Origin: Microthyrium microscopicum
Taxonomy: Eukaryota
Length of the DNA stretch: 64,000 nucleotides
Direction: 5' to 3'
Assembly: GCA_010405405.1 (NCBI GenBank)
Contig: MU004239.1
Location: forward strand, 62,001 to 126,000
This document shows positions 1 through 23,274 of the stretch, one piece after another (position 1 is the stretch's first letter; every line of letters begins with the position of its first letter). Both the position numbers and the translations under genes were made by a program. The notes beneath the pieces are model-generated. The model did no database searches. It saw only the letters and a list, made by a program, of their open reading frames with translations, and was not told the DNA's origin.

Positions 1-2997
1 GACGTTGCCGATGATAGGGGTAACCTGTCTGTATCTCTTGTCCTGGATCAAGACGCGCTGGAGCGTATGTACCGGGCTATGCAGGCAGAAGAGGATATGG
101 ATAAACACAAAAGCTTCGATGAATTCATAACTGCAATCAAAGAAGGCGATTCACGACATTTGCAGTGGGTCATAGTACATTGGCTTTCTAGACCTCGAAC
201 GGGGGACGCCGTATGGGCCCCAGGCTATGAGCACTGTGATCTCCGGGGCGAAAGCGTTCCGCGGGATGTTGCAGAGCGATACGTCGAATACGGCAAAAGG
301 CTCGGGCCCAAAGCAGAGGCTCGTTTACTTACTCTGGAAGACGTTGTGCGGATCTGGGCGCCTGCCGAACAAACAAGAATTGTCACTCGACACGGCTTTG
401 GGATCTATTTCCTAGAAGGTTATCCTCCTCATGAATTCCTGCAGCTTCTGAATACTCTCTCGCAGCGAGACGACAAGGAGACCAGTTCTCGTGCACGAGC
501 AATTCTCAACTCTCGTGAGGCCGAAGACCTCAGAACACAACTGCGTCAAAGCATGGAATCAGCCAAAAGCATGAGGAAACTGCTTCGTAAAGATGAAGGT
601 CTTCAAAAACTTCTGACACCGTTGAACCCGTACAATTTTGACAACAAGGAGTATGTCATTTACTTTGCTCGTGAACATCCATTTTACCGCAACGCAAGTA
701 CAGATCAATCTAGTCACGAATTGGAATGCTATCTAGATGACATTGCAGAGTTTGCACTGCAAATCGACGATCCTCTAGAGTTGGATCCAATTCCTATTGT
801 CATCGAGTGTCTGCGAGAGTACACTACCATCAAGCGGTGGCTAGAGAAGAGACCAGCCAACGTCGTCCTCACCGCTGCAACTCGCGAAAGTACTACTCAA
901 CCTTCATTGCCTAGTCAACTAGTCTACATACCGGACAATTCACTAAACAAGCGGAAACGAACCGAAGAGGAGGAAATCTTTACAGATGCTGCATCGGAGC
1001 TGCAAGTCCCAGGTGCCAAAAGGCAACGAGTGGAGCCTTTAGGCGACGCTCAGACTCCAGTTGTAGCCGGTCCAAGCGGTACCAACGCATTCACGGCCGT
1101 TTTTGATGCTAATTCACCTTCGGCTTCCACAAATGGCGCCCCTGGAAAGCAAAGATACGTCTCTGCTAGATCTACGCCTCGTTTTGAGTCATTAGATCTT
1201 CTCGACATGACACGGCAAGCTGAAAGTCAAACTGGAGTTGATGTACCCTCGAGTGCCACTGCTGGACAGATGCAATTAATTCCTGGGACTGAAACTGGTA
1301 TTGGCGCTGAAATAACACAGAAACCGGTGGAGTCCCAACAAGTGTCTGCAAAATTAGCAAGCTTAGATGCTCCGACCAAAGATTTCATCCATGCCAGGGG
1401 TAATAACCATGACCTCGAAGGAAACACCAAAACACTCAGCCATGTTTCTGAAGAGTCGGAGGAGGAATCAGAGGAGGATTCCGATAGTGAAGACGAATCC
1501 GGTGTACCTGAAGACGAAAAGGAGAGTGCGATGCCTGATGCTCCAAAAGAATATATTCCCAAGGCCACCCTTGAAACAGAAGCCTCGCCTCAGACAATTC
1601 TAGATGACTCTAGCTCTGAGGAAGACACTGAATCATCCGAAGATGAGGACGATGTCCCAATTTCCGACACGATACAGCCTCTTGTACAAAGTACTGAAAA
1701 CACAAGCGTCACTGGAGTAGACCAGGAAAAGTCCGAAGCAAGTCATAGCAGCAACAAGGCCGGGAAACAGCCTATGAAAACTTCAGAGTCAAATGTAGCC
1801 AATATTCTGCCTAATGAAGTTTCAACTTTGGCGAAAGCAACACCTGCTGCGACCTCCTACCCAAACCCAGACACTGCATCAACATCGGTGGATCTCCTCA
1901 AACAATCACTAAATCCTCAATCGACCCCTCCCAGTCCTCCTAAGCCACCCAGCGGCCAACTGGCCCAACATGCAAGCTTAGAGGTGCCCCATGTCCCTAC
2001 CATAGTCAAGACGAAATTCCGAAAACCGCCTCCGACCGCCGCTCAATGCATGGGTGGAGATCCCTACTGGGACGATTTTGAGTCTAGTAGCTCAGATAGC
2101 TCAAGTAGCGATGATGAAGCACCGCCAAGGGGAACCAAGTCGATAATTTATTCTTCGTTTGTTCCCTCCCCTGTACCTATTCCGCCAGAACTGCTTGCTC
2201 CATTCACAGCACCTGCGCCTGCGATCAAACCAATGGATCAGAAGACAGAAATTAAAGAAGGCTCTAGCAGCCATAAGGGCAGTGTGGACTCAGAGGACGA
2301 TGCTGACGATGAGTCTGGCTCAGAAAGCGACAGTTCTGTCCCAAGTTCACCAGTTTCTGAAGAAAGCTTTATTCATGGAGTAGAGGAGGTTCCGAAAGCA
2401 TTCAAGGCTCTCGTACCTTCAGTCGAAGAACTACATCCCGAAGCACAAAGCTCTTCGACCTTGCTCAATGAACCATCACCGCCTGTCACTGAAACCGTTC
2501 AATCATCCGCATTCGACGCACTCAATCCTGCCGCTGAAACTATCATTGAACCTGCCAGCCAGGCCACTCTCATCGGAACCCAGGAACCGCCATCAACTGC
2601 TGTCAACATATCACCTCCAAATCCATTTGCAAAAGCAATTGAAATTGCCAGCAGAGTAGCGCAAGAGTGGGCCCCGCGGAATGGAAGCCCTTCTGCTACA
2701 AATACTAGAGCCAAGAAAGAGCCAGCTAAGAAAACAGCTGCCAAGAAGGCAACACCAAAGGCCCCGATCAACTTGAAAAGTACACCCGTACCACTTCCGA
2801 AGTTTGACGGCATAGCATCAACCTTGACGGCTCCCAAGGTTTCCAAGGCAAAGTCTACAGGTAGTTCGAAAGCCAGCTCCTCCAAGGCTACTACTACTGC
2901 AGGTGCATCAAAAGCCAGTACGGCGGCGGGTTCTTCAAAGGCTAGTGCGAGCGCGCCAAAGAAAGCCGCCAAACCACGGAAGAATGCTGCGAAATAA
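1..2997 (+). CDS. Large hypothetical protein with an acidic/Ser-rich disordered C-terminal two-thirds and a Lys/Ala-rich basic tail; possibly 5'-partial
   Basis: 976-aa ORF 67..2997. The same frame is open back to base 1. Contains an NLS-like KRKR, acidic tracts and a KKTAAKKA/SSKA-repeat tail. No family recognised. Confidence 0.75.
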   Translation, partial: DVADDRGNLSVSLVLDQDALERMYRAMQAEEDMDKHKSFDEFITAIKEGDSRHLQWVIVHWLSRPRTGDAVWAPGYEHCDLRGESVPRDVAERYVEYGKRLGPKAEARLLTLEDVVRIWAPAEQTRIVTRHGFGIYFLEGYPPHEFLQLLNTLSQRDDKETSSRARAILNSREAEDLRTQLRQSMESAKSMRKLLRKDEGLQKLLTPLNPYNFDNKEYVIYFAREHPFYRNASTDQSSHELECYLDDIAEFALQIDDPLELDPIPIVIECLREYTTIKRWLEKRPANVVLTAATRESTTQPSLPSQLVYIPDNSLNKRKRTEEEEIFTDAASELQVPGAKRQRVEPLGDAQTPVVAGPSGTNAFTAVFDANSPSASTNGAPGKQRYVSARSTPRFESLDLLDMTRQAESQTGVDVPSSATAGQMQLIPGTETGIGAEITQKPVESQQVSAKLASLDAPTKDFIHARGNNHDLEGNTKTLSHVSEESEEESEEDSDSEDESGVPEDEKESAMPDAPKEYIPKATLETEASPQTILDDSSSEEDTESSEDEDDVPISDTIQPLVQSTENTSVTGVDQEKSEASHSSNKAGKQPMKTSESNVANILPNEVSTLAKATPAATSYPNPDTASTSVDLLKQSLNPQSTPPSPPKPPSGQLAQHASLEVPHVPTIVKTKFRKPPPTAAQCMGGDPYWDDFESSSSDSSSSDDEAPPRGTKSIIYSSFVPSPVPIPPELLAPFTAPAPAIKPMDQKTEIKEGSSSHKGSVDSEDDADDESGSESDSSVPSSPVSEESFIHGVEEVPKAFKALVPSVEELHPEAQSSSTLLNEPSPPVTETVQSSAFDALNPAAETIIEPASQATLIGTQEPPSTAVNISPPNPFAKAIEIASRVAQEWAPRNGSPSATNTRAKKEPAKKTAAKKATPKAPINLKSTPVPLPKFDGIASTLTAPKVSKAKSTGSSKASSSKATTTAGASKASTAAGSSKASASAPKKAAKPRKNAAK

Positions 2998-3645
2998 TAA
3001 TTTTTAAAACTTAGAAGCGGGTTTGAACTATTCGGTGGTTGCGCGGTTTTTCATATGTCATTTAGCAAAGTTTCATGTATTCTATCATATTTACTCTTTA
3101 ATATCAATCGTCATCTAGTCATAGAAACCAACACCTGTAGTGCTGTGATAACCGCATGCTGTTATAAATTGGAATAGAAGATCTGCGGATTGTATCGAAT
3201 TTAGAATGCTGCTCGGTTCGTTACTTTACAGATTACTGTGTACATGTCCCACAAGTCCTCAACCTCCACGACTTTAATTTTATAGCAACTGCCTAAAAGG
3301 GAACCCGTAACTAGCTTGTGTAGCCCGAGAAGTTCATACGACCTTTACGTGCGACTTGAAACGTTACAATTTTCTCACAAGGCTCAGAATGTCACTCTCT
3401 GATTGTACACAGGTATGCCCGAATGTAGGTGATTTGAGTTGGTCCAGTCGTCATATTCCTCGGTGGTACCATGATAGTACCTCCCAGACGAGTCTTAACG
3501 TCCTAAACTCAAGATTACAGTCATGCTGTACAATCTTTGGTATAAAGCAGGAGAAGCGTACACAAAAGCTCCAGTCAAGTCCAACGATAGCTCGAGCATA
3601 GAGTTCAGACAGTGATGACTTGTTCCTTATCTTTTGACAACCAAC

Positions 3646-4842
3646 ATGAAAGACTTTTGGACTATTTTAGTCACTTTGCAGTCCTTATTAAGCTTGGCGT
3701 TTACAGTACCAGTACCTGACAAGCTTAATGTAAGAGATGTGAGAGGTGAATATCATTTTGCTCGTCTTTGCTACATGCTGAGCGTACTACTTAGCAATAT
3801 CTCAAAGCGACTTCGACACCATCAGCCTCTACGAACAGTACGCAGCCGCGGCCTATTGCCCATCAAACTTTAATGGGTCTGTACCAGCGCTTGTCACTTG
3901 TCGTTCCAACAACTGTGATTTGGTGCAAAAGGCTAAGGCTGCAGCTATTTATAAAATTGCCCCGTAAGACCCCTTGAACACGTTTCTAATCTAGGCTGGA
4001 ATTACGAAGAGCTTAACGACGTTTAGTAATTCGCTTACGGATACCAGAGGCTATATTGCGGTTGATAACGTCAACAAACTAATTGTCGTGGCATTTCGAG
4101 GGTCCGAGACAGTCGCCAACTTCCTGGCAAATCTGTTGTCTATTTTTCTTACTAGAGTCGACCTTTGCACAGGATGTCAGGGTGGCAGTGGATTTTGGAT
4201 TTCCTGGACTAGGAATCGAGCACAAATTATACAACAAGTCAAGAATCTGCTCAATAATCCAGCCAGGCAGAACTATACAGTTTTAGTCACTGGACATTCT
4301 TTGGGAGGTGCCATTGGAAACTTTGCAGCATTTGAGCTTAGAATAGCTTTTCCCAAGACTACAGTTGATATGGTACGTCTCGCATCCTGTTCTGAATTCA
4401 TACCTTGCTATTCTATTTAGTACAACAAGCTCACAGCTTTGATATCTAGGCCACGTTTGGAGCCCCAGCAACCGGCAATCTCATATTTACAAGCCAACTC
4501 AGTAAACAAGATCGGATCCGTGGACGGAACTTTCGTGTTAATCATCTTGGAGATCCAGTACCAAATCTACCTCCTATTCGTGGCTTTACAAGCGTCACGC
4601 CAGCATTCACAATCAATACAGCAAACCAAATAGTTCCAGCCCCAAAGGATTTTACAATGTTAGAGGGAGCTTCGGCGTTGAATCCAGGTGTTACCAATCC
4701 TTTTGATTTTATGCCTCACGCTTTCTACATTAATGCCATTTCTGCATGTTTTGTTACTCCTGCGGCCTTCGTTGCTAATATCACTCTTCCTCTGAAGTTC
4801 ACTTATGGGTCGGAGTACCCACAAATGGAAGCTAGCCTCTAG
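3646..4842 (+). CDS. Secreted class 3 lipase (Lipase_3 family), 4 exons
   Basis: Signal peptide MKDFWTILVTLQSLLSLAF. Exons approx. 3646-3745, 3795-3963, 4027-4372 and 4450-4842, joined by GT-AG introns. Motifs YAAAAYC, VAFRGS, nucleophile GHSLGG, TFGAP, HLGDPVPNLP and a C-terminal His (PHAFY). Confidence 0.92.
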
Positions 4843-5650
4843 GCTTGATGTATCCTCTGATTAGCCTATACCGTTATGTATTTGGTCTATTCGAAGCAGT
4901 CGAAGCCATGCTAATTGAATCAGCTGAAAGGTACGAACTTTGCAAACAGCATTCTAGCCGCTTCGTGTTGTCTTTATCAAGGTCTCTCTTGAAAGTTTGC
5001 GTCTATTGTGAATTTGGACAGCCTGCTTAGTTAGCGACTGTGAAGTCTGGTAGTTATCGTTCAAATCACTTCAATGCGGCTCAGAACCAAATCAGAACTA
5101 GTTGATGTGTTGTTGGCGTCCCATAATGGTAGACTAGATCACACCCTTTTTCTCGATTTTGTTGCAAGTTATAGGAGGAACTCCCTTTCGTCGGTAAACA
5201 TGATCTTGCTGAGAAGAGTCGCTGCATAGCATCTGGATGATGCGTTCTCGTCGTTTATGCCAGAACCAGGACTCGGGATGCAAGCACTAGCAGATATTGA
5301 TTGTGCGATTCGATAGCAAGGTGATATTTGAGACAGAATACGTCACAAGATCTGTCCGTGTTTTAACACTGTTAACAGACGGAGTTGTTTCTAAGCTGTG
5401 AAAGTTCCAAAATCGATTTTCCATGGAAGATATATCCTTCTCCCGATTTCTTCTGGCTCCTGTATACTATACCCTTCCGTTCTCCAGAAAAATCACTCCT
5501 CATAATTACTGGTGTTACACAAGGTTAAAACAATTGTGCGCCAACGACCTTCGAACCATGAATAGTGCATTATTTTAACTGTACAGCTGGTGCATTACAT
5601 TGTAGGATATATACGAAAATGGAGCAATTTTGTCTCAAATCCAAGCTCCC

Positions 5651-5701
5651 GTACGTGATGATTCTATATCTTCTTATTAGTACCGTGCTAACCGCATGTA
5701 G
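5651..5701 (+). other. Putative spliceosomal intron 1 of tRNA-Tyr (51 nt, between tRNA nt 5 and 6)
   Basis: Donor GTACGT, branch site GCTAAC at 5687-5692, acceptor TAG at 5699-5701. Confidence 0.85.
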
Positions 5702-5735
5702 CTTGGTCTAGTTGGTTCATGACGTTCGGCTGTAA

Positions 5736-5746
5736 TTGATACTATT
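5736..5746 (+). other. Canonical tRNA intron (position 37/38), TTGATACTATT
   Basis: 11 nt inserted one base 3' of the GTA anticodon. Removal restores the 7-nt loop and the CCGAA 3' stem strand, as is typical for eukaryotic tRNA-Tyr. Confidence 0.9.
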
Positions 5747-5777
5747 ACCGAAAGGTCTCCGGCTCGATTCCGGAAGG

Positions 5778-5824
5778 GTAAAAACAATCAAGTCTACACC
5801 TTAGAACTTACTGACACTTTGTAG
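5778..5824 (+). other. Putative spliceosomal intron 2 of tRNA-Tyr (47 nt, between tRNA nt 68 and 69)
   Basis: Donor GTAAAA, branch site ACTGAC at 5810-5815, acceptor TAG at 5822-5824, followed by GGAGA, which completes the acceptor stem. Confidence 0.82.
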
Positions 5825-5854
5825 GGAGATCATGATGAGGATCTAGAAGATCAC

Positions 5855-5860
5855 TTTTTT
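5855..5860 (+). terminator. Putative RNA polymerase III terminator (T6) for the tRNA-Tyr gene
   Basis: First run of 5 or more T after the tRNA start, 25 nt downstream of A73, followed by a T5. Confidence 0.6.
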
Positions 5861-6373
5861 GCTATTTTTACTTGCGTGGTATAGCCTTATTAGGTGGGGT
5901 TCAATCACTAGTTCCATTTCTTTTGTTTTTGTATTGAAGCCCATTGCGAGGACTGAAATGCTGGAAGAAGCAGTGGACACGTTGATCTTATTCAGGCGCT
6001 AGGTATAATTGTGCGGCCCTAAGAATTCAAGTTGTGTATATACCGCAGAGAATTTTCAGGATGCAACATTAATTAAGCCTTTTTAGGACCCCAAAATAGG
6101 TGCTTACTACTCACTAATTTTAGGGGACCCTACATAGCGCTAACTAATTTTAGAGGGTGTAGCGTACTACAGGGTTACTAATTTTAGAGGCTCTAGCTTA
6201 CTATAAATTGTCCTCTTTGTCTTAGCGTTTATATTAAGCCTATTAAGCACTCAAATAGCTACAGTACTGCGAGCGAAGGGGACAATACTAATAAAGGGGA
6301 CAACGCTAATCGAAAGGAACAAACAGGCGCTAATTAAAGGAGATAATACATATAAAGATAACGCGTATTAAAT

Positions 6374-7460
6374 CCTAAGCTAGTTCGTAGTAGAATGTAT
6401 AGTAGTAAGAGCACATTTTAGTGTTTCGCTATAGCTAATCCCTAAGCTATAAGGGCTTTAAAAAATAGTATTTTTAGCTATTTAATAAAGAGGATTAGGA
6501 GCGCCTTCCTAATATTAGTTATAATATTAGCTATTAATAGCTAATATTAGCTATTAGTAGTTAAAATAGCTACTATCTAAAAATGCGTTATTTTTAGCTA
6601 CTATAAGATAATCTAGCTCTTTAAAAATATAAAGGGCTAGATTATATAATTTAGCACGTAACTATTACGTAACACGGCACGTAATTATAATATTAAGATC
6701 TAGTAATTCCTAGATCTTAATATTACGTGTTAAATACTATAGATTTAAATAGCTTAAGTAGCTACTATAGGATAATCTAGCCCTTTAGATATAAAGAGCT
6801 AGATTTAAAGCTAGTCCTAGATTGGTCTAGCTTTACAAACTTAAGGCTCTTAAGTCCTAAGCTACTTTATAGTAGAATATATAGTAGTAGGAACATATTT
6901 TAGTATTTTGCCGTAGCTAATCCCTAAGCTATAAGGGCTTTAGAAGATCGTATTTTTAGCTTTTTTAAAAAGGGGATTTTAGGCTAATAGTAGCTATAAT
7001 ATTAGTTACTAGTAGCTAATATTAGCTATTAGTAGCTAAAATAGCTACTATCTAAAAATACGTTATTTTTAGCTACTATAAGATAATCTAGCTCTTTAAA
7101 AATATAAAGGGTTAGATAATATAATCTAGTACGTAATTATTACGTAATAAGGTACGTAATAATACGTAATTATAATATTAAGATCTAGTAATTCCTAGAT
7201 CTTAATATTGCGTATTAAATACTATAGATTTAAATAGCTTAAGTAGCTACTATAAAATAATCTAGCTCTTTAGATATAAAGGGCTAGATTTAAAGCTAGT
7301 CTTAGATTAGTTTAGCTTTATAGACTTAAGGCTCTTAAGTTCTAAGCTACTTTATAGTAGAATATATAATAGTAGAGGTATATTTTAGTATTTTACTATA
7401 GCTAATCCCTAAGCTATAAAGGCTTTAGAGGGTTATATTTTTAGCTACTTTATAAAAAAG
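6374..7460. repeat. About 483-bp tandem repeat (approx. 2.2 copies) inside the pogo-like element
   Basis: Unit start (C/T)CTAAGCTA...GTAGAAT...GCTAATCCCTAAGCTATAA recurs at 6374, 6856 and 7341. Copies differ mostly by transitions. Confidence 0.85.
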
Positions 7461-8004
7461 ATAAGAATTTAGCTAAGATTTTATAAGATTAGTAATTATA
7501 CCTATTAATTCTTATAGTAATTCTAGTTAATTCTTAAGTAAATTCTATTCTTAGTTATAGTTTAGAGATATATTTACTAAGTCTTAAATTTTTAGAAATT
7601 AGATATATTTTTACTAGATTTAGCGTTAGCTAGACTAATTACTATAAACTAGACTTAAGTTTAGGATAGTTTATTATTAAGTTAGATTTTATATATAGTT
7701 TATAGTTAGTATAATTATAAAGCTTTATATAAGAAATAGATAAGAATCTACTATTTAGCTAGCTTAATAATATTAGCTACTAGATTACCTCTAAAACTCT
7801 TTTAGAGTCTTTAGTAAAGAATATAATATATTTCTTAGTTTACTCTTTTAGGGTAGCTTAGAAATAAATATTTATATATTTTTAAGAAAATACTTTTTAT
7901 ATTAAAAAGTTATTTTCTTTTTATTAAATTAATCTATCTTTATTTTATTTTTTTTATTATATTATTAGATAATATAATAAATATTAATTTATTCTATTAT
8001 CTAA

Positions 8005-8386
8005 GTAAGTAATAAAACTACTAGAAGGTTAAAGTAGTTTAGTTCTACTTAGATAGTTAGTCTACTTAAGTAAATAGTAAAACTACTAAAAGATTAAAGT
8101 AGTTTAGTTCTACTTAGATAGTTTAAAGTAGTTTAGTTCTACTTAGATAGTTAGTCTACTTAAGTAAGTAGTAAAACTACTAGAAGGTTAAAGTAGTTTA
8201 GTTCTACTTAGATAGTTTAAAGTAGTTTAGTTCTACTTAGATAGTTTAAAGTAGTTTAGTTCTACTTAGATAGTTTAAAGTANNNNNNNNNNTAGATAGT
8301 TTAAAGTAGTTTAGTTCTACTTAGATAGTTTAAAGTAGTTTAGTTCTACTTAGATAGTTTAAAGTAGTTTAGTTCTACTTAGATAG
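8005..8386. repeat. 29-bp minisatellite (AAAGTAGTTTAGTTCTACTTAGATAGTTT) spanning a 10-N assembly gap
   Basis: Direct tandem copies on both sides of the N run at 8283-8292, so the true copy number is unknown. Confidence 0.9.
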
Positions 8387-11300
8387 TAAATACTTTATTT
8401 TAGGTAAACTTTATATATTTTATAAAGTAGAACTTTAATAAATTATATTTTAGTCCTTTTTACTTATATTAGATAATGTTTATTTTATATTAAAATATAG
8501 GTAAATATTTCTAAATAAGAGAGACTAATAGAATATAACGCTAAAGTAAAATTAAATAAAAAGCGTTATTAGGGCGGCATAGTATATAGAGTAGTATATT
8601 AATCTAATTTATATATATTTACTATAAAAGATAGTAAATTAGAGCTAGAGTAATTACTAGATATTATTTATAGCTTCTATAAGAATATTTTACTTATTCT
8701 TACTAAAATAGTAATAAAGATTAGGGTAGCTTATTTTTTAAGAAATATAGTTTAATTATTTATTTCTATTTATCTTATTAGTTACTAGATATATACTTTT
8801 TATATTAAGTACTTTTTAATAAAAATATATAGATAATAAATATATATTATTATTATTAAGAAAACTAGTCTATATAGCTTTTAGCTTATTAGTAGATATA
8901 TTAATCTTTAGTATAAAAGCTTTTATAGATTAAGTAAGAGAGTAGTAAGCCTCTTATTAACTTATTTTTTATAGAGTAAAGCTAGTTTTAATATAAAGAT
9001 AAGCTACTTTCTAAAAAGAAAGTATTATACTTAGAGAAAGAGAATATCTAGTCTTTTAATAGTATATTTATTTAGTATTTATTACTACTACGTAGTACTT
9101 TATATTAGTAGTAATAAAGCTAATCTTAAGGTCTTATATATAAAAGTTAGTAATATAAAAGCCCTTCTTATTAAGCTTAGTAATAAATACTATATAATTA
9201 TTATTTTAGAAGCTATAAGTACCTTTGTCCTTTTTTACTCTTAAACTTTATTACTTTAAACTCTTCTATAAGTTAAGTATAAATTATTACTTTAATTTAT
9301 TTAGAATCTATAGCGTATATTAACTTAGAAGTATTATAATAGATAAGACTTATATATAAGAATATTAAGACGTTTACTAACTTTAGAATTAATTTAATAA
9401 GCTTTTCTTAAATAATAATTTATTTAATATAATAAGCTAAGGTATAAATCTTTATAGAAGAAGATAAAAGCTTAAGGTAGCCTAAGCTAACTTATATTTT
9501 TAAGGATAGTTATACTATACTTATTTTAAATTATTTTTACGTTCTTAGTAAGTTAGAGAGCTAATAAAATTAACTATATAACTAATCTTTATTATTAGTA
9601 ATAGTAAATAAAGTTAGATTCTAGTAGAATTTATTAACTTTAAAGATTTTCTAGACTACTAATTAGCTCTTTTAAAGTAACTAGCCTATCTAGGTTAGGC
9701 TTAGATTTCTAAATACTAGATTATTATATATGCTCTTTAACTTTTAAAGCTTTATACTTTAGACTAGATTTACTATTAACTTTTATCCTAGATAGCTTCT
9801 AGATATATTTCCTTTTTATAGATTTTCTATCTTTACTTTTCTCTTAGCTATTTCCTTCTAGCTTCTCTTTAGCTATTCCTCTTTAGCTAATTCCTTTTTA
9901 GCTATTCTCTTTAGCTTTACCTTATTCTTAGCTCTTCCTATAGTATTCTTCTTCTTTTCTAGCCTCTCTATTTTTTATTATTCTTTATAGATTTACTAAT
10001 AGTTAAACTATAAAATATAGACCTTAGGATCTTATAGTACTATTTATAGATATACTTAGCTATACTAAAAAATAATTTATTAATAGTATATATTAGATAT
10101 AACTTATAATTATATCTCTTTATATAATTTCTTAGTTAGAGAAGAGTATTACTTAGTTTTTAGAGCTACTACTAATAAAGGAAGTCTATTTTAAGATAGT
10201 ATATTACTTTCTATAACTCTTTCTATAAATAGAGATATAGTATACTATAGATAGGTTTACTAATATAATTAGTAACTAATTAAACTAGCTTTAAAAGTAA
10301 ATATATAAGTTATTTTATAGATAACTAAAAAAGATTCTTATACTTTATAAAGATAAGATAAAAGACTTAATATATAGAGAACTCTTACTTTTAGTAGTAG
10401 TTATTAGTATATAAAATCTATTTTTTTACTTTTATTAATTACTTCTTTAGAATAGGCTTCTTTATAATTAACTTCTTTATTATAGGCGTCTTTATAGCCT
10501 AAGAATCCTTCTTTTTATAAAGTCTCTTTAGTCCTTTTTTTTAAATAACTTTTATAATAGGCTAAAGATTTAGATTAAACTTTACTTAATTAGTAGGACT
10601 TACTAGTTAAGGATTTTATTACTAAGAAGGATTAAGTTTTTAAGACTAATTATCTTTCTTTTTATTATAGCTCTTCTTTAAGATCTAAATAGGAGGATAG
10701 TAATTTATAAGAGAAGAAAGTTTATTTTAATAGTTAAAGTTTACTTAACTCTAATATTAAGAAATAGGTTAGTACTACTCTTCTTAAGTTTAATTTATTA
10801 GTTAAGTTTTATACTAAGTTAGAAAAGTAAAAATAGATTAAGTATAAATAGTTTAATATTAATTCTAAGATAGAGAGTAAGACTAAGATAGAAGTAGAGA
10901 TTAAGAATAAGTAGTCTAAAATAGAGGCTAAAATAGAGGCTAAAATAGAGTTTAAACTAGAGTTATAACTATAGAAGGATCTATATATTATAAAGATTTT
11001 AATTCTATATACTTAGAGTTAGATTTAGAGCTAAAAGAAGGATTAGCTTCTTTTTCTTATTAATTTAAGTAATTATTAACTTCTTCTTTATTAGCCTAGT
11101 TAGCATAAAATAAAGGAATACTCTTTTCTTTTTTAATCTTTATCTTCTTAAAAGGATTTAAATTATTAGAATTATTCCTTAGTAGTAATATTAATCTCTA
11201 ATCTAATAAATTAATATTACTAGTAGCTATTCTTTTTATTAATATAAAATAATCTTTTAAGCTATTTAGAGTAATATTAATTCTAGTATAAGTAAAAGAA

Positions 11301-11459
11301 TACTTTATAATATTATATTTTTAGTAAGTTTACTAAGTATAAGCCTTTTCTTATATATAAGTAACTATTTTAGTTAAGATAATACGTTTTTTACTTATAA
11401 TAAGATTATAAAAATCCTTATTTAGATACGCTTTAAAAGTAATTTTATCTTAATATTCT

Positions 11460-11930
11460 TAAAAGTACTTCTTAATAACTTAGTTAATGCTAATATCTAA
11501 AGGTTAGATTTTAGCTATTAGTCTAGAAGTAATAACTATAAGAATAATGCTATATATATAATAGTAAGCCTTAACTTTTTTAGTAATATAAAACGCTATA
11601 GAGTTAATAATAACCTTTAATATTAGCTAAGGAGGTATAAGCTATATTAGTAAGTAAATTTAGCTAATAGGATTACTATTAAACTTTATAAGTTTAATAG
11701 TAGTAAAGATATAAGCTTTATTACTTTAAGAATTAAAGCTTATATTATATTTTAAAGGATAAGTTAGAATAAAAATAAATTTAAAGAAGAATATTCTTAC
11801 CTTAAGCTTATTAGTAATATTATTCTTACTTAAGTTAGTACTACTTAGAATCTATATAAGGAACCTATTAATCTTTAATTTATAAAATAATTAGGAATAA
11901 ATTTATCTAAGTAGTTTTATTAAACTTTAT
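11460..11930 (-). pseudogene. Relic catalytic region of a pogo/DDE_1 transposase
   Basis: Minus strand reads IINSIAFYITKKVK...VITSRLIAKI*PLDISIN. Reverting RIP transitions gives D-S-x-x-F-H ... Q-P-L-D-x-x-x-N with 35 residues between the aspartates. KFNKT near 11920 is a candidate for the first (D-E-T) motif. Confidence 0.75.
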
Positions 11931-14900
11931 AATAATATATTTATTATAAAGAAATCCCTTAGTAACTTTGTTTTAACTATAATGTTTAGTAGGTAATCTA
12001 TAGAATATAATTAATAGTTTTATAATTATTTTTCTATTAGTAGAGGTTTCTAAATATATTATTATTAATTATTTCTTTTATCTACTTTTAGAAATAGTAT
12101 AAGAGATATTATTTAATTCTACTAGGTAATAAGTATAGCTAGATATAGTTTTATATATATAAGGAGTTTTATTATTATTTATAATAAAATAAGTAAGAAT
12201 TTAGGTATATGCCTTTACTTTATAGCTTATAGAAATAACTAACCTAGTATAGTATTACTAATAAAAAGAAATAAAGTAATTAATAAATTATTTTTAATCT
12301 TAAGAAAGGTTTTAGCCTATATAGGTTATTTTTTAATAAAAAATCTAGTAGCGTTTTTAAAACCTTATAAGCTAGCTTCTTAAAAAGTAAGGTCTTTAAG
12401 GAATAGCTTATCTAGATACTATAAGGGAAGTATATACTAGAGGCTATTATTAAGTAGCTTCTCTAAAGAACTAGCTAGATAAAATTTCTTAGTTCTTTAT
12501 AAGCTAAATAATAAACTAGTAATAGATTATAGATTCTAAGTTTAGAAAGTATTCTTATTCTATATTAAGTTTTATTTTCTTTTAGTTACTAGTAATAAAT
12601 TTAGCCTTATTTTGCTTTTTTTACTAATAAGAAATTATAAATTTATTAACTAAAAAGTAGTTACTTGCTTCCTTAAACGTTATATATTACTATAATTACT
12701 TAGTTACTAGATCTTTAAAGTATCTAAGCTTTAGACGTAAATATAAAATTTATTTTTTATATAGCTAAAGAACGTAGTATTTATAAATTATTTATCTTAG
12801 GATTTTAGTCTATATAGTAATATTATATATTTTAAAAGCTCTTTTTTTTAGAGTAGAGTAGTTAATTTTACTATCCTAACTACTAAATTTTTTAGTAGTT
12901 TTTTTATATTTAATAAAGTAACTTTACTTTGCCTAAAGGTTAGCCTTTTTAGTATTTATTAATAGATTTTACCTTAGAATTAGTCCTTACTATATTATCT
13001 TTAGTTAATTAAGTTCTTTTGCTAGTAATTTATATATATTTTCTATATATATAGTTAAGTTTATAGTTTAATTAAGGCTATAAAGTCTTTAGTTTATTAG
13101 TAGCCTTTCTTATAGCTTTCTTCTCTATATTACTCTTTTACTAGTAATTTAGTATAGCTAAGTAAGTTACTAAATCTAGTATACTAGTTATAGGATATAA
13201 TTATTCTTTTTATAAAACTAATATATAATTATAAAGAGTAGTACTATAATTTATAATTAGTAAAAATTATTATTATACTAAACTAAAAGAGGCTAATTAA
13301 TGTTGCATCCTGAAAATTCTCTATGGTATACTAGTACCTAATACATATCGATAGGGTTTGGATGTATTATGGCAAGTAACATAAATAGTATACAACATTA
13401 TCCCTTTCTTCTAGAATGTTTTGAATATGTCCTGTTTACATGACTACAACTCAGCCAGATCTGTCTGGACGAGTGTATATCGAGCAAACACTGCAAGTCT
13501 CTTACTCTGGGAAATACAAAAAAAGTGATTTGAGAAACAATCGGTTGCGACTTGCTCGTCGACGAATACCAAGGAAGCAAGTGCATTGTCTACTTCACCA
13601 AATACTCGTTCATATGCTACAGGTATCATACGACATTTCACTAATCTGCCGGACCCCCGCGGGGAGACTGTTGATTTGGATAAGAGGTTAGCTTCTTGAC
13701 TAAGATAAAAAGAGGACATGCATCAGAGGCTTTAGAGCTAGCATTGAATTGCCATCAGCGACTGGGGAGTCATTTACTAACATACTTTAGTGAATGAATA
13801 GGTTAGGTAGGTACCTACCTACCTAAGTACTAGTTGGTACATGCTGATGTTCTCAACATTGCTACTATGGCTTGATATAAGCATACCATACTTCAATCCA
13901 GATTGATTGACTGCAAACACTTTCTTAGTGGCTCACATATTACAGGTACTAGTCGCCCAAATTTTGATGAAAATATCACCCGCAGGAGGATGCAATTTTG
14001 GAACACTTAGCTTCTCTTTCTCTATCGAGGGAAATCAGGTTTTATTTTCCATAAAGACAACCGAACTCTTTCCTTGCGTGAGATATCCAAGCACAGCAAT
14101 AGGGTTTCGTTGAGCTCGAAGCTGGCAAATGCTGCTCCTTGAACAGGACGACTTCGGAGTACATGCAAGCAGTACTAAAGAAATAGCTGCGTACACTAGA
14201 CAATCATAGCCCGCGGAGTTCTCCATGGTATCAAATGAGATTCCAAGCGGCTAGAGCGCATATAATGGAGCATTTTCATACGAGAAGAGGCTGAAAAAAT
14301 AAGAAATAAACCTTGATGGACCGCAGACTCTAGCCATCCGTATATGGCACCACTGCATCTCGATCCAATGAGGTCTACTTCCCCAGGTCTCAGTTGCACC
14401 TCATGCAGTTATTTTATGCACTGACGCACATTTTGCCTGTCAAATGTCCCTGTACATAATTTCTGCATGCAGCCAAGGCAGATTCCAAGAACTAGAACAA
14501 CCAGGAGTTGAACTTTTCACCCCCGCGACAAGGCCACTAATGACAACTCTGTGTCTATATGACGCTTGCCATAGATGTCAATCCTCCTCTTAGCCAATCT
14601 CTTAGCATTGCTATGATTAAAACTTCTAACAACGTAGCTTGGTGTGGGATTATGCGCCTCGGTTGCTTTCGGCAGGAAGAGAAGTTACAAATCAAGACTG
14701 CGGTGCCGGATATGCAACTCAGCTGAGAGGAATGAAAGCATCCTGGAAGACTAGTTGGTATAAAAATGGAACTGCTATAAATGTATCACAAGTTCCTGAA
14801 AGTAAGAAATGTTGAATCTGTTTACTCACAAGGATATCATACAAACTCGTTTGCCAGATTTAACCTCGACCTCCATTGTTCTCAAGCGACAGCATTTCGC

Positions 14901-20384: not shown

Positions 20385-23274
20385 CCCTTTCCGTTCTGTA
20401 GTGTTTATGCACTGGTAGAGGCTTGATTTAGACTTAATAGACTAACTAAAATAGGTAATATTCTAAGCGATTAAAAGCTACAATTACTGTTAGGGCATTG
20501 GTCTTAGGGTCTTATAATTATTATAGCTAAAAACTAGTATCTAGATATAATTATTAGAGTAGAATTACTCGTGTTCTTCCCTTCCTGTCGTATAATAATA
20601 TTTTAGTATCTTATAGCCTAATCTTATGCCCTTCTAGAATGCTTGTCCCTAGTATTTAGTTAGTAAACGGTATCTTAAGATCGTATGCTTTAGGGACGTA
20701 CTATCTTTATGGTATTAAATAAAGTAAGGCTTATAAAGAGGCGAAATATTTTAACATTCTTTATAGTACTATGAAGTTATTCTTATCTTTATACGCGTAT
20801 TATCTAATTAATAATGTTTCTAGCGATAATAAGTATATTGCTTATAATTACTAGGAAGATGCGCTATTTTATAAAGCCCTAAGTGAAATCTTATAAGAGG
20901 GAGTTTAATACTACGAATGATATATTTTAAGCTATAACTATTACAAACTTTAGAGGTTTTATAATGTGATCCTGTTACCTATAGAAAGCACTACTTCTTA
21001 TATATTTTCTAATATGCTTTAAAGTATAAACTCTATGCTAGATATAATTGAAATCATTGTAAGGAAAGTACGTGATTTCTATTGTGCTTAGTCGCATTAG
21101 GGTACGCGCAAGTTTAGAGCTCTAGCGCTAAGAGGTACATATTAGTGATAGTAGCATTAATTAACTATAGAAAAAGTGGCATCTACGTTCTAATACCTAA
21201 AATTAATATTAGTAAAGAGCTAAGAATAAGACGAATTAAATAGTAGTACTTTTAAGTTAATTAGACTTAAAACTAAAAAGTTATACTATTAATCTAAAAA
21301 AGTAAGAAATTTCTTACCCCTATAGTAAACTATGTAGTAGGATCGCTATTAGTTAATGATATTAACACTACCTATAAACTAGTTATACTTAATAGCTACC
21401 TTAGGCTAGAGATATTAAATTACTACGTAATTACTCTAGATTTGATTTACCTAACGTCTATTATATGCTAATTATATATTTAGCCTCCTTCTAGAAGCAT
21501 AAAGCATCTTAGAAGATATATAATAGGTTATTAGGAATCTTATAAGAATACGATCGCGCTAGAAGATACTAAGTACTCTATAGACGCTTTTAGCATCTAT
21601 TCTACCCTATAGCTAATTATTAGATTCCTTTGATTCTAAGGTATATTAATAAGAATAATCTTTAGATCTTGCTTAAGTTATACTAGAGCATTTAAAGCTA
21701 TAATCCCTTAGGATCTAAAGAAGACGTATATTATTAAAGAAGTTATCTATGAAGATTAGGAAGCGTTTAAGCATAAATAGTAAAGTAAGCACTATTATAA
21801 GAACTGCCTAAGATATTGTATTTATATTACTCTAAAAGCTTAAAGTACCTAAAGGAGGACTCTAAGAATAGGCATAGGTAGGTATATCTTCATTACTATC
21901 TAATAATGTAAAACTACTAGGAATTGTATAAAGATAATCCTATAGGTAGCCTGAGAAGTAAGTAGCAAGCACTTTAAAGCCTTTAGGAATTAGTTTCTCT
22001 TTAATACGGATCTTAGCGTTAGTTCTACTAGTAAACTTTATTATTATCTTATTAATTAAGACGTAGTTCATAAAAATTATGGTATCTTTGAAGCGCTAAG
22101 CAAGTGTTAAAGATAAAGGATCTAGCTTCTTAAATAGTGCTTCTCTTCTTTATATGGAGGTCTCTAGCACTTTTGTCTTATTAAGAGCTTTTAAATAGAT
22201 ATTCTTTTTAATAATCTATTAGCGAGTACGCGTTATAAACGTTGAGATATTATTTAATGGTATAGTACTATTAGAGCTCTAGAGATCTACTACTTCTTAT
22301 ACTAAGTAGGCCCTAAGATAGATAAGGATACTAAGGAATATCTAGATTTCCTTAGCTAAAATAGGCTTGATTGAATCTAGATCTTTGCTTATAGCAAGAA
22401 AGTTGGATTATAGATATAGATTAGTATTAATAGCAATTAAATTAAAGTCTTAGTCTTTCTATAGTATATTAAAAAAGATTAGCGGTATATCATAGTAAGC
22501 ATAAAGGGCATCTAAATTTAGTATTTTATAGCCTTTAAGCAAGGGAGCTAGATCTACTAATCTTTAAGGTAATTGGTATAAAATTTAATATTATAATAAT
22601 AGTAGTTTACTATAGAAATTATCTAGTAGCTTCGTAATAAATTTGCAATATTCTAGACGTTGTAGAGCATTAAAATCTACCTCTAGTTAACCTTCTACAA
22701 CTATTCTATGCCTAGATCTAAAGATATAGATTATATCTCTGTCTATAGGATTAAGATATGAGCCTAAGTTAAAATTAGGTAGAGGAACTTTAGGGTATAA
22801 TAGTATTATTAATCCTATAAGATCTAGTAATAAAAGTATATTATAGTTAATACTAGAAGAAAGAGCTTTAAAAAGAACTTCTCTATTTTCTTCCTTAATA
22901 TTTATTCATAGAACTATAGATAGAAACGTATTAGTATAGTTTAGCATCTTAGTTAGTAGACTAACGCTAAAGGATAAGATTAAGCTAATTTTAAAGGGAT
23001 AGTAGGCATCTAGATTAGAAGATTAATAAAATTAGTTACTATAGCATTGTTTTACTAATTTTAGACTAATTAACTCTAAAATTTTATAAGTTATTCTATT
23101 AAATTATAGCTTACTAACGCATATATTTTTAATATAGGCGGACGTTAGATGAATATTGGGGGGGATAGAAGATTGGTGGTCTGTTCGTATATTTTGGGTT
23201 TAACGTTAGTCCTAAAAGGGTTATCACTCGTCGGTTGTGGCGGGTGTTGATAATTTAGCATAGAACGGAAAGGG
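20385..23274 (-). mobile_element. RIP-inactivated piggyBac-like DNA transposon, about 2.9 kb
   Basis: TIRs CCCTTTCCGTTCT(G/A)T. Minus-strand relic motifs INKIIIKFTSRTNAKIRIKEKLIPKGFKV (approx. 22055-21965; DEMM.KF.GR...KPIPEGFK after RIP reversal), FIDNFFN (approx. 21745) and YN*FIGSVNIIN (approx. 21365; YN..MGGVD..DQ) give the three piggyBac aspartate motifs. Confidence 0.88.

Follow-up and report, generated by a model that had tools for sequence, protein, structure and literature searches.

Can a nuclear transfer RNA (tRNA) gene be interrupted, outside its anticodon loop, by introns of the messenger RNA (mRNA) type, so that its product would depend on the spliceosome? This question is raised by a locus at positions 5646 to 5829 of a 64,000-nucleotide (nt) stretch of Microthyrium microscopicum DNA (assembly GCA_010405405.1, contig MU004239.1, positions 62,001 to 126,000 of the forward strand). 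This stretch, hereafter called the window, is the part of the genome that was analysed. In the reading that we consider likely, taken as a whole, the locus is a tyrosine tRNA gene, tRNA-Tyr(GUA), from a filamentous ascomycete, distributed over four exons that are separated by three introns of two kinds, namely two mRNA-type introns of 51 and 47 nt (inserts 1 and 2) and the usual 11-nt tRNA intron, and its transcript would be matured by two splicing systems in the manner proposed below.

Such an arrangement crosses a boundary that is commonly drawn between intron classes. Papers of 2024-2026, in their passages on tRNA introns, describe these as removed by an endonuclease and not by the spliceosome, and keep the eukaryotic nuclear classes apart: tRNA introns follow position 37 and are cut by the endonuclease for tRNA splicing (TSEN), and spliceosomal introns lie in the transcripts of RNA polymerase II (Pol II) (PMC10946435, PMC12530127, PMC13149111). 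No published report of spliceosomal introns in tRNA genes was found in a full-text literature search, subscription journals and supplements being outside its scope.

Detection of tRNAs was performed using ARAGORN and Rfam. No tRNA was called in the 64-kilobase (kb) window by ARAGORN with default settings, and no Rfam match was obtained over the whole window, whether at gathering scores or at an E-value of up to 1. On a 701-nt stretch, the RF00005 model gave a local match at 5702-5776 (30.3 bits, model positions 6-65 of 71), which is a tRNA without the outer five pairs of the acceptor stem. From the raw DNA of the locus no tRNA was obtained by ARAGORN even with introns allowed; with both inserts deleted in silico, the same program called tRNA-Tyr(gta), 75 nt long and with an intron of 11 nt following position 37. 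An earlier interpretation of this DNA, made without database searches and called here the sequence-only reading, had expected that a finder score would rise after in-silico splicing and that standard finders would miss the gene. The ARAGORN call does appear only with the inserts removed, and the second expectation is borne out: ARAGORN and Rfam fail on the window gene as well as on its relatives.

The anatomy of the locus explains the incomplete match. The tRNA body (5702-5777) occupies 76 nt of contiguous DNA and is devoid of an acceptor stem, the missing bases lying in two mini-exons behind GT..branch..AG inserts, which agrees with what had been claimed from the sequence. In the cloverleaf table obtained after removal of both inserts, the partners of the first mini-exon are G68 of the body and bases 5825-5828, and acceptor pairs 1-5 form only in this state. 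The spliced cloverleaf displays 7/7 Watson-Crick acceptor pairs, with C1:G72 and A73, in keeping with the earlier proposal that cuts at GT and AG restore a 7-bp stem with these elements. The places assigned at that time to the mini-exons CTCCC and GGAGA are right, with one correction, namely that GGAGA does not belong entirely to the stem: four of its bases do, and the fifth is the discriminator base A73. The combination of C1:G72 and A73 constitutes the tyrosine identity elements of eukaryotic and archaeal tRNAs.

Two controls were performed in order to estimate how often such a configuration arises by chance. In the deletion control, all GT..CTRAY..AG segments of 35-95 nt were deleted, singly and as neighbouring pairs, on both strands, and the resulting variants (17,363 + 13,875 = 31,238) were passed through ARAGORN. 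Four tRNA calls spanning a junction were obtained, all of them at the 5646-5829 locus. In the pseudo-body control, an AG before the body and a GT after it, together with five Watson-Crick pairs between the flanks adjacent to the GT and AG, were found in 5 of 126,961 pseudo-bodies, and none of these 5 had branch motifs in addition. Given the outcome of both controls, the split-tRNA configuration is not considered as a product of chance.

Evidence at the RNA level was provided by X1, the sole public run matching the stretch (dated 2014, library type unrecorded), whose contigs were compared with the window over 3000-7000. Contigs of this kind show the presence of RNA forms, not their absence, and the strand is unreadable from them. 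Five of the seven X1 pieces are at least 99% alike to the window. The contigs skip 3964-4026 and 4373-4449 of a neighbouring class 3 lipase gene, both segments being bounded by GT..AG, and leave 3134-3535, 4876-5644 and 6216-7000 without cover, intergenic stretches included (these uncovered stretches serve only to argue against an origin from genomic DNA). Because they lack the lipase introns and leave intergenic DNA bare, we take the contigs to be derived from RNA, and from the same organism.

At the tRNA locus, one X1 contig (record 5) covers 5645-5776 and 5824-6069, with zero other differences over its 378 nt. Its joint, which reads 5777/5825 once an ambiguous G is shifted, skips 47 nt with GT..AG ends that are exactly 5778-5824, and the contig thus shows that insert 2 is excised in RNA at the predicted GT..AG bases. 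The 5' end of the contig, at 5645, lies one base before tRNA position 1 and follows the bare stretch 4876-5644; the transcript therefore holds mini-exon 1 and begins just upstream of it, as the split-gene model requires. The form of insert 1 spliced at 5650/5702 was not found among the X1 contigs, in which minor forms are dropped. Of the two joints that the sequence-only reading had proposed to look for, GAAGG/GGAGA is thus present in X1 and CTCCC/CTTGG is absent from its contigs, and the claim of two mRNA-type introns in a tRNA-Tyr gene is upheld in RNA for the 47-nt insert, whereas the 51-nt insert is retained in the sole contig of the locus. This retention weighs little, because contigs drop minor forms and because a spliced 5' end of 6-10 nt would probably have been clipped as a tip; by its signals, insert 1 would also be excised in the window gene.

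Related genes were searched for in metagenomes with a pattern made from the anticodon arm and the variable loop only, a choice that introduces no bias toward split genes. Four loci were retrieved, three of which (L002, L003 and L004) are tRNA-Tyr genes; the fourth, L001, matched by chance in coding-like DNA and holds no tRNA, and the same holds for L005 and L006, the single matches obtained from the bacterial/archaeal and the viral collections, respectively. In 3/3 of the metagenomic tRNA-Tyr genes, extra GT..AG inserts stand beside the canonical intron, and none of the three (0/3) is uninterrupted. The earlier suggestion to look for split tRNAs in relatives has thus yielded three tRNA-Tyr genes with similar inserts at other positions, in the D loop, at the junction of D loop and stem, in the T stem and at the junction of T stem and loop. 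ARAGORN calls L002 and L004 only after removal of the inserts, and the partial gene L003 is left uncalled; all three complete genes (window, L002 and L004) therefore give tRNA-Tyr(gta) only with the inserts removed, with canonical anticodon-loop introns of 11, 28 and 12 nt according to ARAGORN. Rfam searches at E up to 1 found nothing in L002, L003 or L004, and local Rfam searches gave a sub-threshold match of 17.3 bits in L002 and nothing in L004. No further tRNA, split or intact, was found in the window or in L001 to L006 by ARAGORN or by the deletion-variant finder.

The three complete genes have acceptor stems that differ at pairs 2, 4, 5 and 7, with both strands changed and the bases always paired, each spliced cloverleaf having 7/7 Watson-Crick acceptor pairs; this covariation points to selection acting on the spliced product. 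C1:G72 and A73 are shared by L002 and L004 with the window gene, and the 3' half of L003 likewise has G72 and A73. The product of the window gene would be a tRNA that is charged and used.

The loci are otherwise dissimilar. No synteny was found among the window locus and L002 to L004, alignment being limited to the tRNA exons. L002 adjoins a homocitrate-synthase-like open reading frame (ORF), a neighbour that fits a fungal origin, and the window gene adjoins the class 3 lipase gene. The canonical 28-nt introns of L002 (2013-2040) and L003 (21-48) are nearly identical, and their flanks cannot be aligned; these two genes, whose sets of introns differ, are either close paralogues or copies from sister species. 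That their canonical introns are almost the same and the places of their GT-AG inserts differ points to recent gain or loss. At positions 1-8 of L003, the first five bases are unlike the exon bases of L002 and bases 6-7 are AG; another GT-AG insert ending in the D stem may lie there, the contig being very short at this place.

Several points weigh against the split-gene interpretation. The X1 contig in which insert 2 is spliced, the only one at the locus, keeps insert 1 (5651-5701). It continues through the T6 and T5 runs that follow the gene, about 200-210 nt beyond T6, to at least 6069, and the sequenced RNA is therefore not a normally terminated precursor tRNA (pre-tRNA) made by RNA polymerase III (Pol III). 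The GTAAAA donor of insert 2 is weak, the 5' exon, of 5 nt with a short leader, would be very short, and in the window gene the internal A box follows position 1 at a distance of about 58 nt, more than is usual for start-site choice by Pol III. Finally, the RNA comes from one run of unrecorded library type, and the genome is seen through a 64-kb window.

These points would be accommodated if the locus produced a Pol II non-coding RNA or were a decaying tRNA relic, a possibility that we hold to be rather improbable. Only the 47-nt intron would then be spliced, the 51-nt segment would be plain 5' sequence, no working tRNA would be made, and intact tRNA-Tyr genes would lie elsewhere. The retained 5651-5701, the extension of the RNA to about 240 nt past A73, through T6/T5 and into repeat-derived sequence, and a TATA element compatible with Pol II all suit this explanation, as does the position of the gene on the border of a repeat block of 20% GC. 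Two irregularities of the tRNA itself suit it too: the D stem has a T.T mismatch in the cloverleaf table, and the T loop (5757-5763) reads CTCGATT, with a C at position 54 where L002 to L004 have TTCGA. As nearly all elongator tRNAs have T at position 54, C54 could be the mark of a degenerating copy or a peculiarity of the lineage. Against decay stand the full complementarity of the mini-exons, which yield C1:G72 and A73, and the start of the RNA within one base of tRNA position 1. The 51-nt segment has full splice signals, with the spacing of verified introns, in a configuration seen in 0 of 126,961 pseudo-bodies; three other genes share the architecture, with acceptor stems that covary and with T-run terminators that are conserved, and none of the three tRNA-Tyr genes retrieved through the anticodon arm is uninterrupted.

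Assignment of the inserts to the spliceosomal class was based on their signals, with the lipase introns considered as reference introns of the host. All six inserts found in the four genes are 47-55 nt long, start with GT and end with AG (6/6). An NCTNAY branch-like motif, comparable to the fungal branch-point consensus, which is CTRAY-like, is present in 6/6, its A being situated 10 nt before the 3' end in four inserts and 12 nt before it in two (10 nt in both inserts of the window gene, at A5691 and A5814); the motif of the L003 insert, CTCAC, is weaker. In the RNA-verified lipase intron 3964-4026 the branch A is also 10 nt from the 3' end, so that the resemblance to the protein-gene introns of the window, noticed on sequence alone, holds for the GT..branch..AG order and for the branch spacing. 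Likewise, the GTACGT donor said to be shared by insert 1 and the lipase intron at 4373 is, in the lipase gene, confirmed by the RNA joint. The inserts are somewhat shorter than the host mRNA introns (63 and 77 nt).

A different class is suggested by the tRNA genes of archaea and of Cyanidioschyzon, which include genes with non-canonical introns of the bulge-helix-bulge (BHB) type, multiple-intron genes, and split and permuted genes (PMC4090602, PMC3978253). As described in these sources, they resemble the genes studied here in having interruptions outside the anticodon loop (acceptor stem, D arm, T arm), sometimes several per gene, that are missed by standard finders; they differ in that their introns are defined by a BHB and cut by the endonuclease, whereas the inserts here follow the GT..branch..AG pattern and one of them is removed at GT/AG in RNA. 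If the inserts were BHB introns cut by the tRNA splicing endonuclease, their GT..AG ends would be coincidental. We consider this highly improbable, even though acceptor-stem, D-loop, T-arm and multiple introns are known for the BHB class (PMC4090602). A simple search of our own for a symmetric 4-bp central helix, which is not a full BHB model, found one in 1/6 inserts only, a weak one needing G.U pairs, and the BHB reading was rejected on this basis; the GT..AG ends with a branch-like motif at 10-12 nt in 6/6 inserts, and lengths near those of the host mRNA introns, stand against it as well. Moreover, the eukaryotic endonuclease operates by a ruler mechanism that measures from the mature body, and this body cannot form before the inserts are removed.

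Membership in a family of introner-like elements was also rejected, as blastn-short comparison of the six inserts with the window and all loci gave only chance matches of 9-13 nt (the genome being represented by 64 kb). Since they share no sequence beyond chance, the inserts are not copies of one introner. Introner-like elements are described in Dothideomycetes, among other cases of recent intron gain (PMC5647799); the likeness, as far as that account goes, is that in filamentous ascomycetes short spliceosomal introns have apparently been gained or lost recently, and the difference lies in the absence of shared sequence among the six tRNA inserts beyond chance 9-13-mers.

Which polymerase transcribes the gene was examined from the surrounding signals. 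A run of five or six T starts 13-26 nt after A73 in 4/4 genes, as compared with 1-5% of random 30-nt windows of the same sequences, and AT-rich, TATA-like stretches also occur in L002 and L004, about 25-42 nt upstream, hence in all three genes for which upstream sequence exists. Fission-yeast tRNA genes depend on TATA. The B-box-like T arm of the window gene is contiguous in DNA, though with C54, and the A-box region of L002 is split by its insert. No insert (0/6) contains a run of five or more T, which fits transcription by Pol III and is not significant alone. The T runs and the upstream TATA-like stretches favour genes of the Pol III type; the read-through RNA of X1 favours Pol II, or else read-through molecules enriched by a standard library. 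On balance, transcription of the window gene by Pol III is probable.

In the alternative, which differs only in the polymerase, the split tRNA is functional and Pol II makes a longer precursor, from which RNase P and RNase Z release the tRNA after splicing. This alternative appears unlikely, although it carries more weight than any other that we have set against the proposal. The RNA passes T6 and T5 and measures at least 378 nt after splicing, its 5' end lies about 35 nt downstream of the TATA element, its start is about 64 nt upstream of the A box, which is unusual for Pol III, and spliceosomal splicing is normally coupled to Pol II. On the other side, T5-6 runs are found in 4/4 genes, against 1-5% by chance, and genes of Pol II would have no reason to keep them; no run of at least five T occurs in any of the six inserts; ordinary RNA sequencing would be expected to miss short terminated Pol III precursors and to keep long read-through molecules; and the U6 small nuclear RNA (snRNA) of fission yeast, as reported in a review, shows that a Pol III transcript can be spliced (PMC5855946).

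Under the proposal of a spliceosome-dependent, Pol III-transcribed gene, maturation would proceed as follows. Transcription would start near 5640, a few nucleotides upstream of 5646 and about 30-37 nt past TATATA, most likely by Pol III, by which tRNA genes are otherwise transcribed, in view of the T-run terminator conserved in all four. In the primary transcript the inserts separate five nucleotides at either end of the tRNA from the rest, so that no acceptor stem can form. Both GT-AG introns would thus be removed by the spliceosome before other steps, and only then would the acceptor stem of 7 bp, with C1:G72 and A73, fold together with the L-shaped body. The fold would in turn admit RNase P, RNase Z, the tRNA splicing endonuclease and ligase, which act on the 11-nt intron, and CCA addition. 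The window gene would therefore require both the spliceosome and the tRNA endonuclease.

Table 1. Coordinates of the features of the split tRNA-Tyr locus, of the neighbouring reference gene and of the inserts in related metagenomic genes (positions in the window or in the respective metagenomic locus).
Sequence	Feature	Positions	Strand	Basis or remark
Window	TATATA element, candidate start-site selector	5608..5613	+	Read from sequence; 33-38 nt 5' of tRNA position 1; role presumed
Window	Mini-exon 1, CTCCC, tRNA positions 1-5 (acceptor stem, 5' strand)	5646..5650	+	Sequence, ARAGORN, cloverleaf table
Window	Insert 1, 51 nt, GTACGT..GCTAAC..TAG, spliceosomal-type, between tRNA positions 5 and 6	5651..5701	+	Splice signals; ARAGORN call needs its removal
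Window	tRNA positions 6-37: end of acceptor 5' strand, D arm, anticodon stem 5' strand, loop with GTA	5702..5735	+	Rfam RF00005 local match, cloverleaf table
Window	Canonical 11-nt tRNA intron after position 37, endonuclease type	5736..5746	+	ARAGORN intron call, cloverleaf table
Window	tRNA positions 38-68: anticodon stem 3' strand, variable loop, T arm, 3 bases of acceptor 3' strand	5747..5777	+	Rfam, cloverleaf table
Window	Insert 2, 47 nt, GTAAAA..ACTGAC..TAG, spliceosomal-type, between tRNA positions 68 and 69	5778..5824	+	Splice signals; skipped in RNA-derived contig
Window	Mini-exon 3, GGAGA, tRNA positions 69-72 (GGAG) and discriminator A73	5825..5829	+	Sequence, ARAGORN, cloverleaf table
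Window	T6 run (5855-5860) and T5 run (5865-5869)	5855..5869	+	Pol III-terminator-like; first begins 26 nt after A73
Window	RNA-derived contig over the locus, insert 2 removed	5645..6069	+	X1 record 5, 378 nt, depth 28.4; ends where repeat-related sequence begins
Window	Class 3 lipase gene, Pfam PF01764	3995-4842		Introns 3964-4026 (63 nt) and 4373-4449 (77 nt, GTACGT donor) RNA-verified
L002	Insert, 50 nt	1942-1991		Between tRNA positions 16 and 17
L003	Insert, 51 nt	64-114		Between tRNA positions 52 and 53; 5' half of gene beyond contig end
L004	Insert, 55 nt	299-353		Between tRNA positions 21 and 22
L004	Insert, 50 nt	398-447		Between tRNA positions 53 and 54

The surroundings of the gene were examined in the same window. 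That the tRNA-like sequence forms the 5' untranslated region of a downstream protein gene was ruled out, as only very short ORFs and then repeat relics follow. The Atlas neighbours of one protein place this DNA in Ascomycota. Two blocks, at 6100-13600 and 20500-23200, are full of degenerate repeats and have about 19-29% GC, as compared with 42-53% GC in genic DNA; they look like relics of repeat-induced point mutation, and the tRNA gene borders the first of them. The X1 contigs whose loose ends fall at 6039 and 6132 are similar to the local repeat without matching it, and this suggests transcription from other copies of that repeat. At the beginning of the window, an open frame at 1-2997 (998 amino acids) is rich in Ser, Pro, Ala and acidic runs and belongs to no Pfam family; an X1 contig of 3179 nt, with a depth of about 250, carries its 3' end, and the frame is therefore highly expressed in the X1 sample.

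Precedents for spliceosomal introns in structural RNA genes exist in fungi. An intron of the mRNA type occurs within the gene for U6 snRNA in fission yeast and in other fungi (Tani and Ohshima 1989, 1991, cited in PMC5855946), and a 2018 review of U6, where it lists intron-bearing non-coding genes, names the U6, U2, U5 and U1 snRNAs and ribosomal DNA (rDNA), and no tRNA (PMC5855946). The likeness to fungal U6, as far as that review describes it, consists in a spliceosomal GT-AG intron within a Pol III-type gene for a small structural RNA, which has to be spliced before it functions, and the same source describes species-specific insertions at varied positions. The differences are that the tRNA host is not a component of the spliceosome, that up to two such introns occur per 75-nt gene together with an endonuclease-type intron, and that Pol III transcription is presumed for the window gene. 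As a tRNA is not part of the spliceosome, the explanation by reverse splicing into an RNA situated at the catalytic centre is not applicable to the tRNA inserts. Spliceosomal introns are also known from the nuclear rDNA of ascomycetes (Bhattacharya et al. 2000, cited in PMC5855946 and PMC6652019). In the accounts given by these sources, the rDNA introns resemble the tRNA inserts in being short and of spliceosomal type, in occupying many positions of a structural RNA not made by Pol II, and in varying in presence among relatives; the hosts differ, being ribosomal RNA genes of Pol I there and tRNA genes here.

The insertion positions recorded so far, six in four genes, raise the question whether the window gene is an isolated case. 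A broader reading would be that most or all nuclear tRNA-Tyr genes of one lineage of filamentous ascomycetes are split by spliceosomal introns, at many positions and often twice per gene, with the spliceosome acting first on Pol III transcripts and with gain still in progress. We put this forward tentatively, as something that may well not hold. If it is true, the scattered positions and the difference in presence and absence between L002 and L003 would indicate an ongoing gain of introns in tRNAs, probably by a route in which introns are reverse-spliced into pre-tRNA and the product then undergoes reverse transcription and gene conversion.

If the split-gene interpretation is true, a spliceosome-dependent tRNA adds tRNAs to the non-coding RNA genes that bear spliceosomal introns. 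It would provide a natural case in which one small RNA passes through both splicing systems in a forced order, and a second, independent test of the spliceosome on likely Pol III transcripts, and the six insertion sites in a 75-nt gene would offer a compact system for studying the origin of spliceosomal introns. Because standard finders miss such genes entirely, the counts of tRNA-Tyr genes for such fungi may be wrong. If the lineage-wide reading is true as well, the annotations of these fungi are systematically without tRNA-Tyr, and the decoding of a whole amino acid depends in them on the spliceosome.

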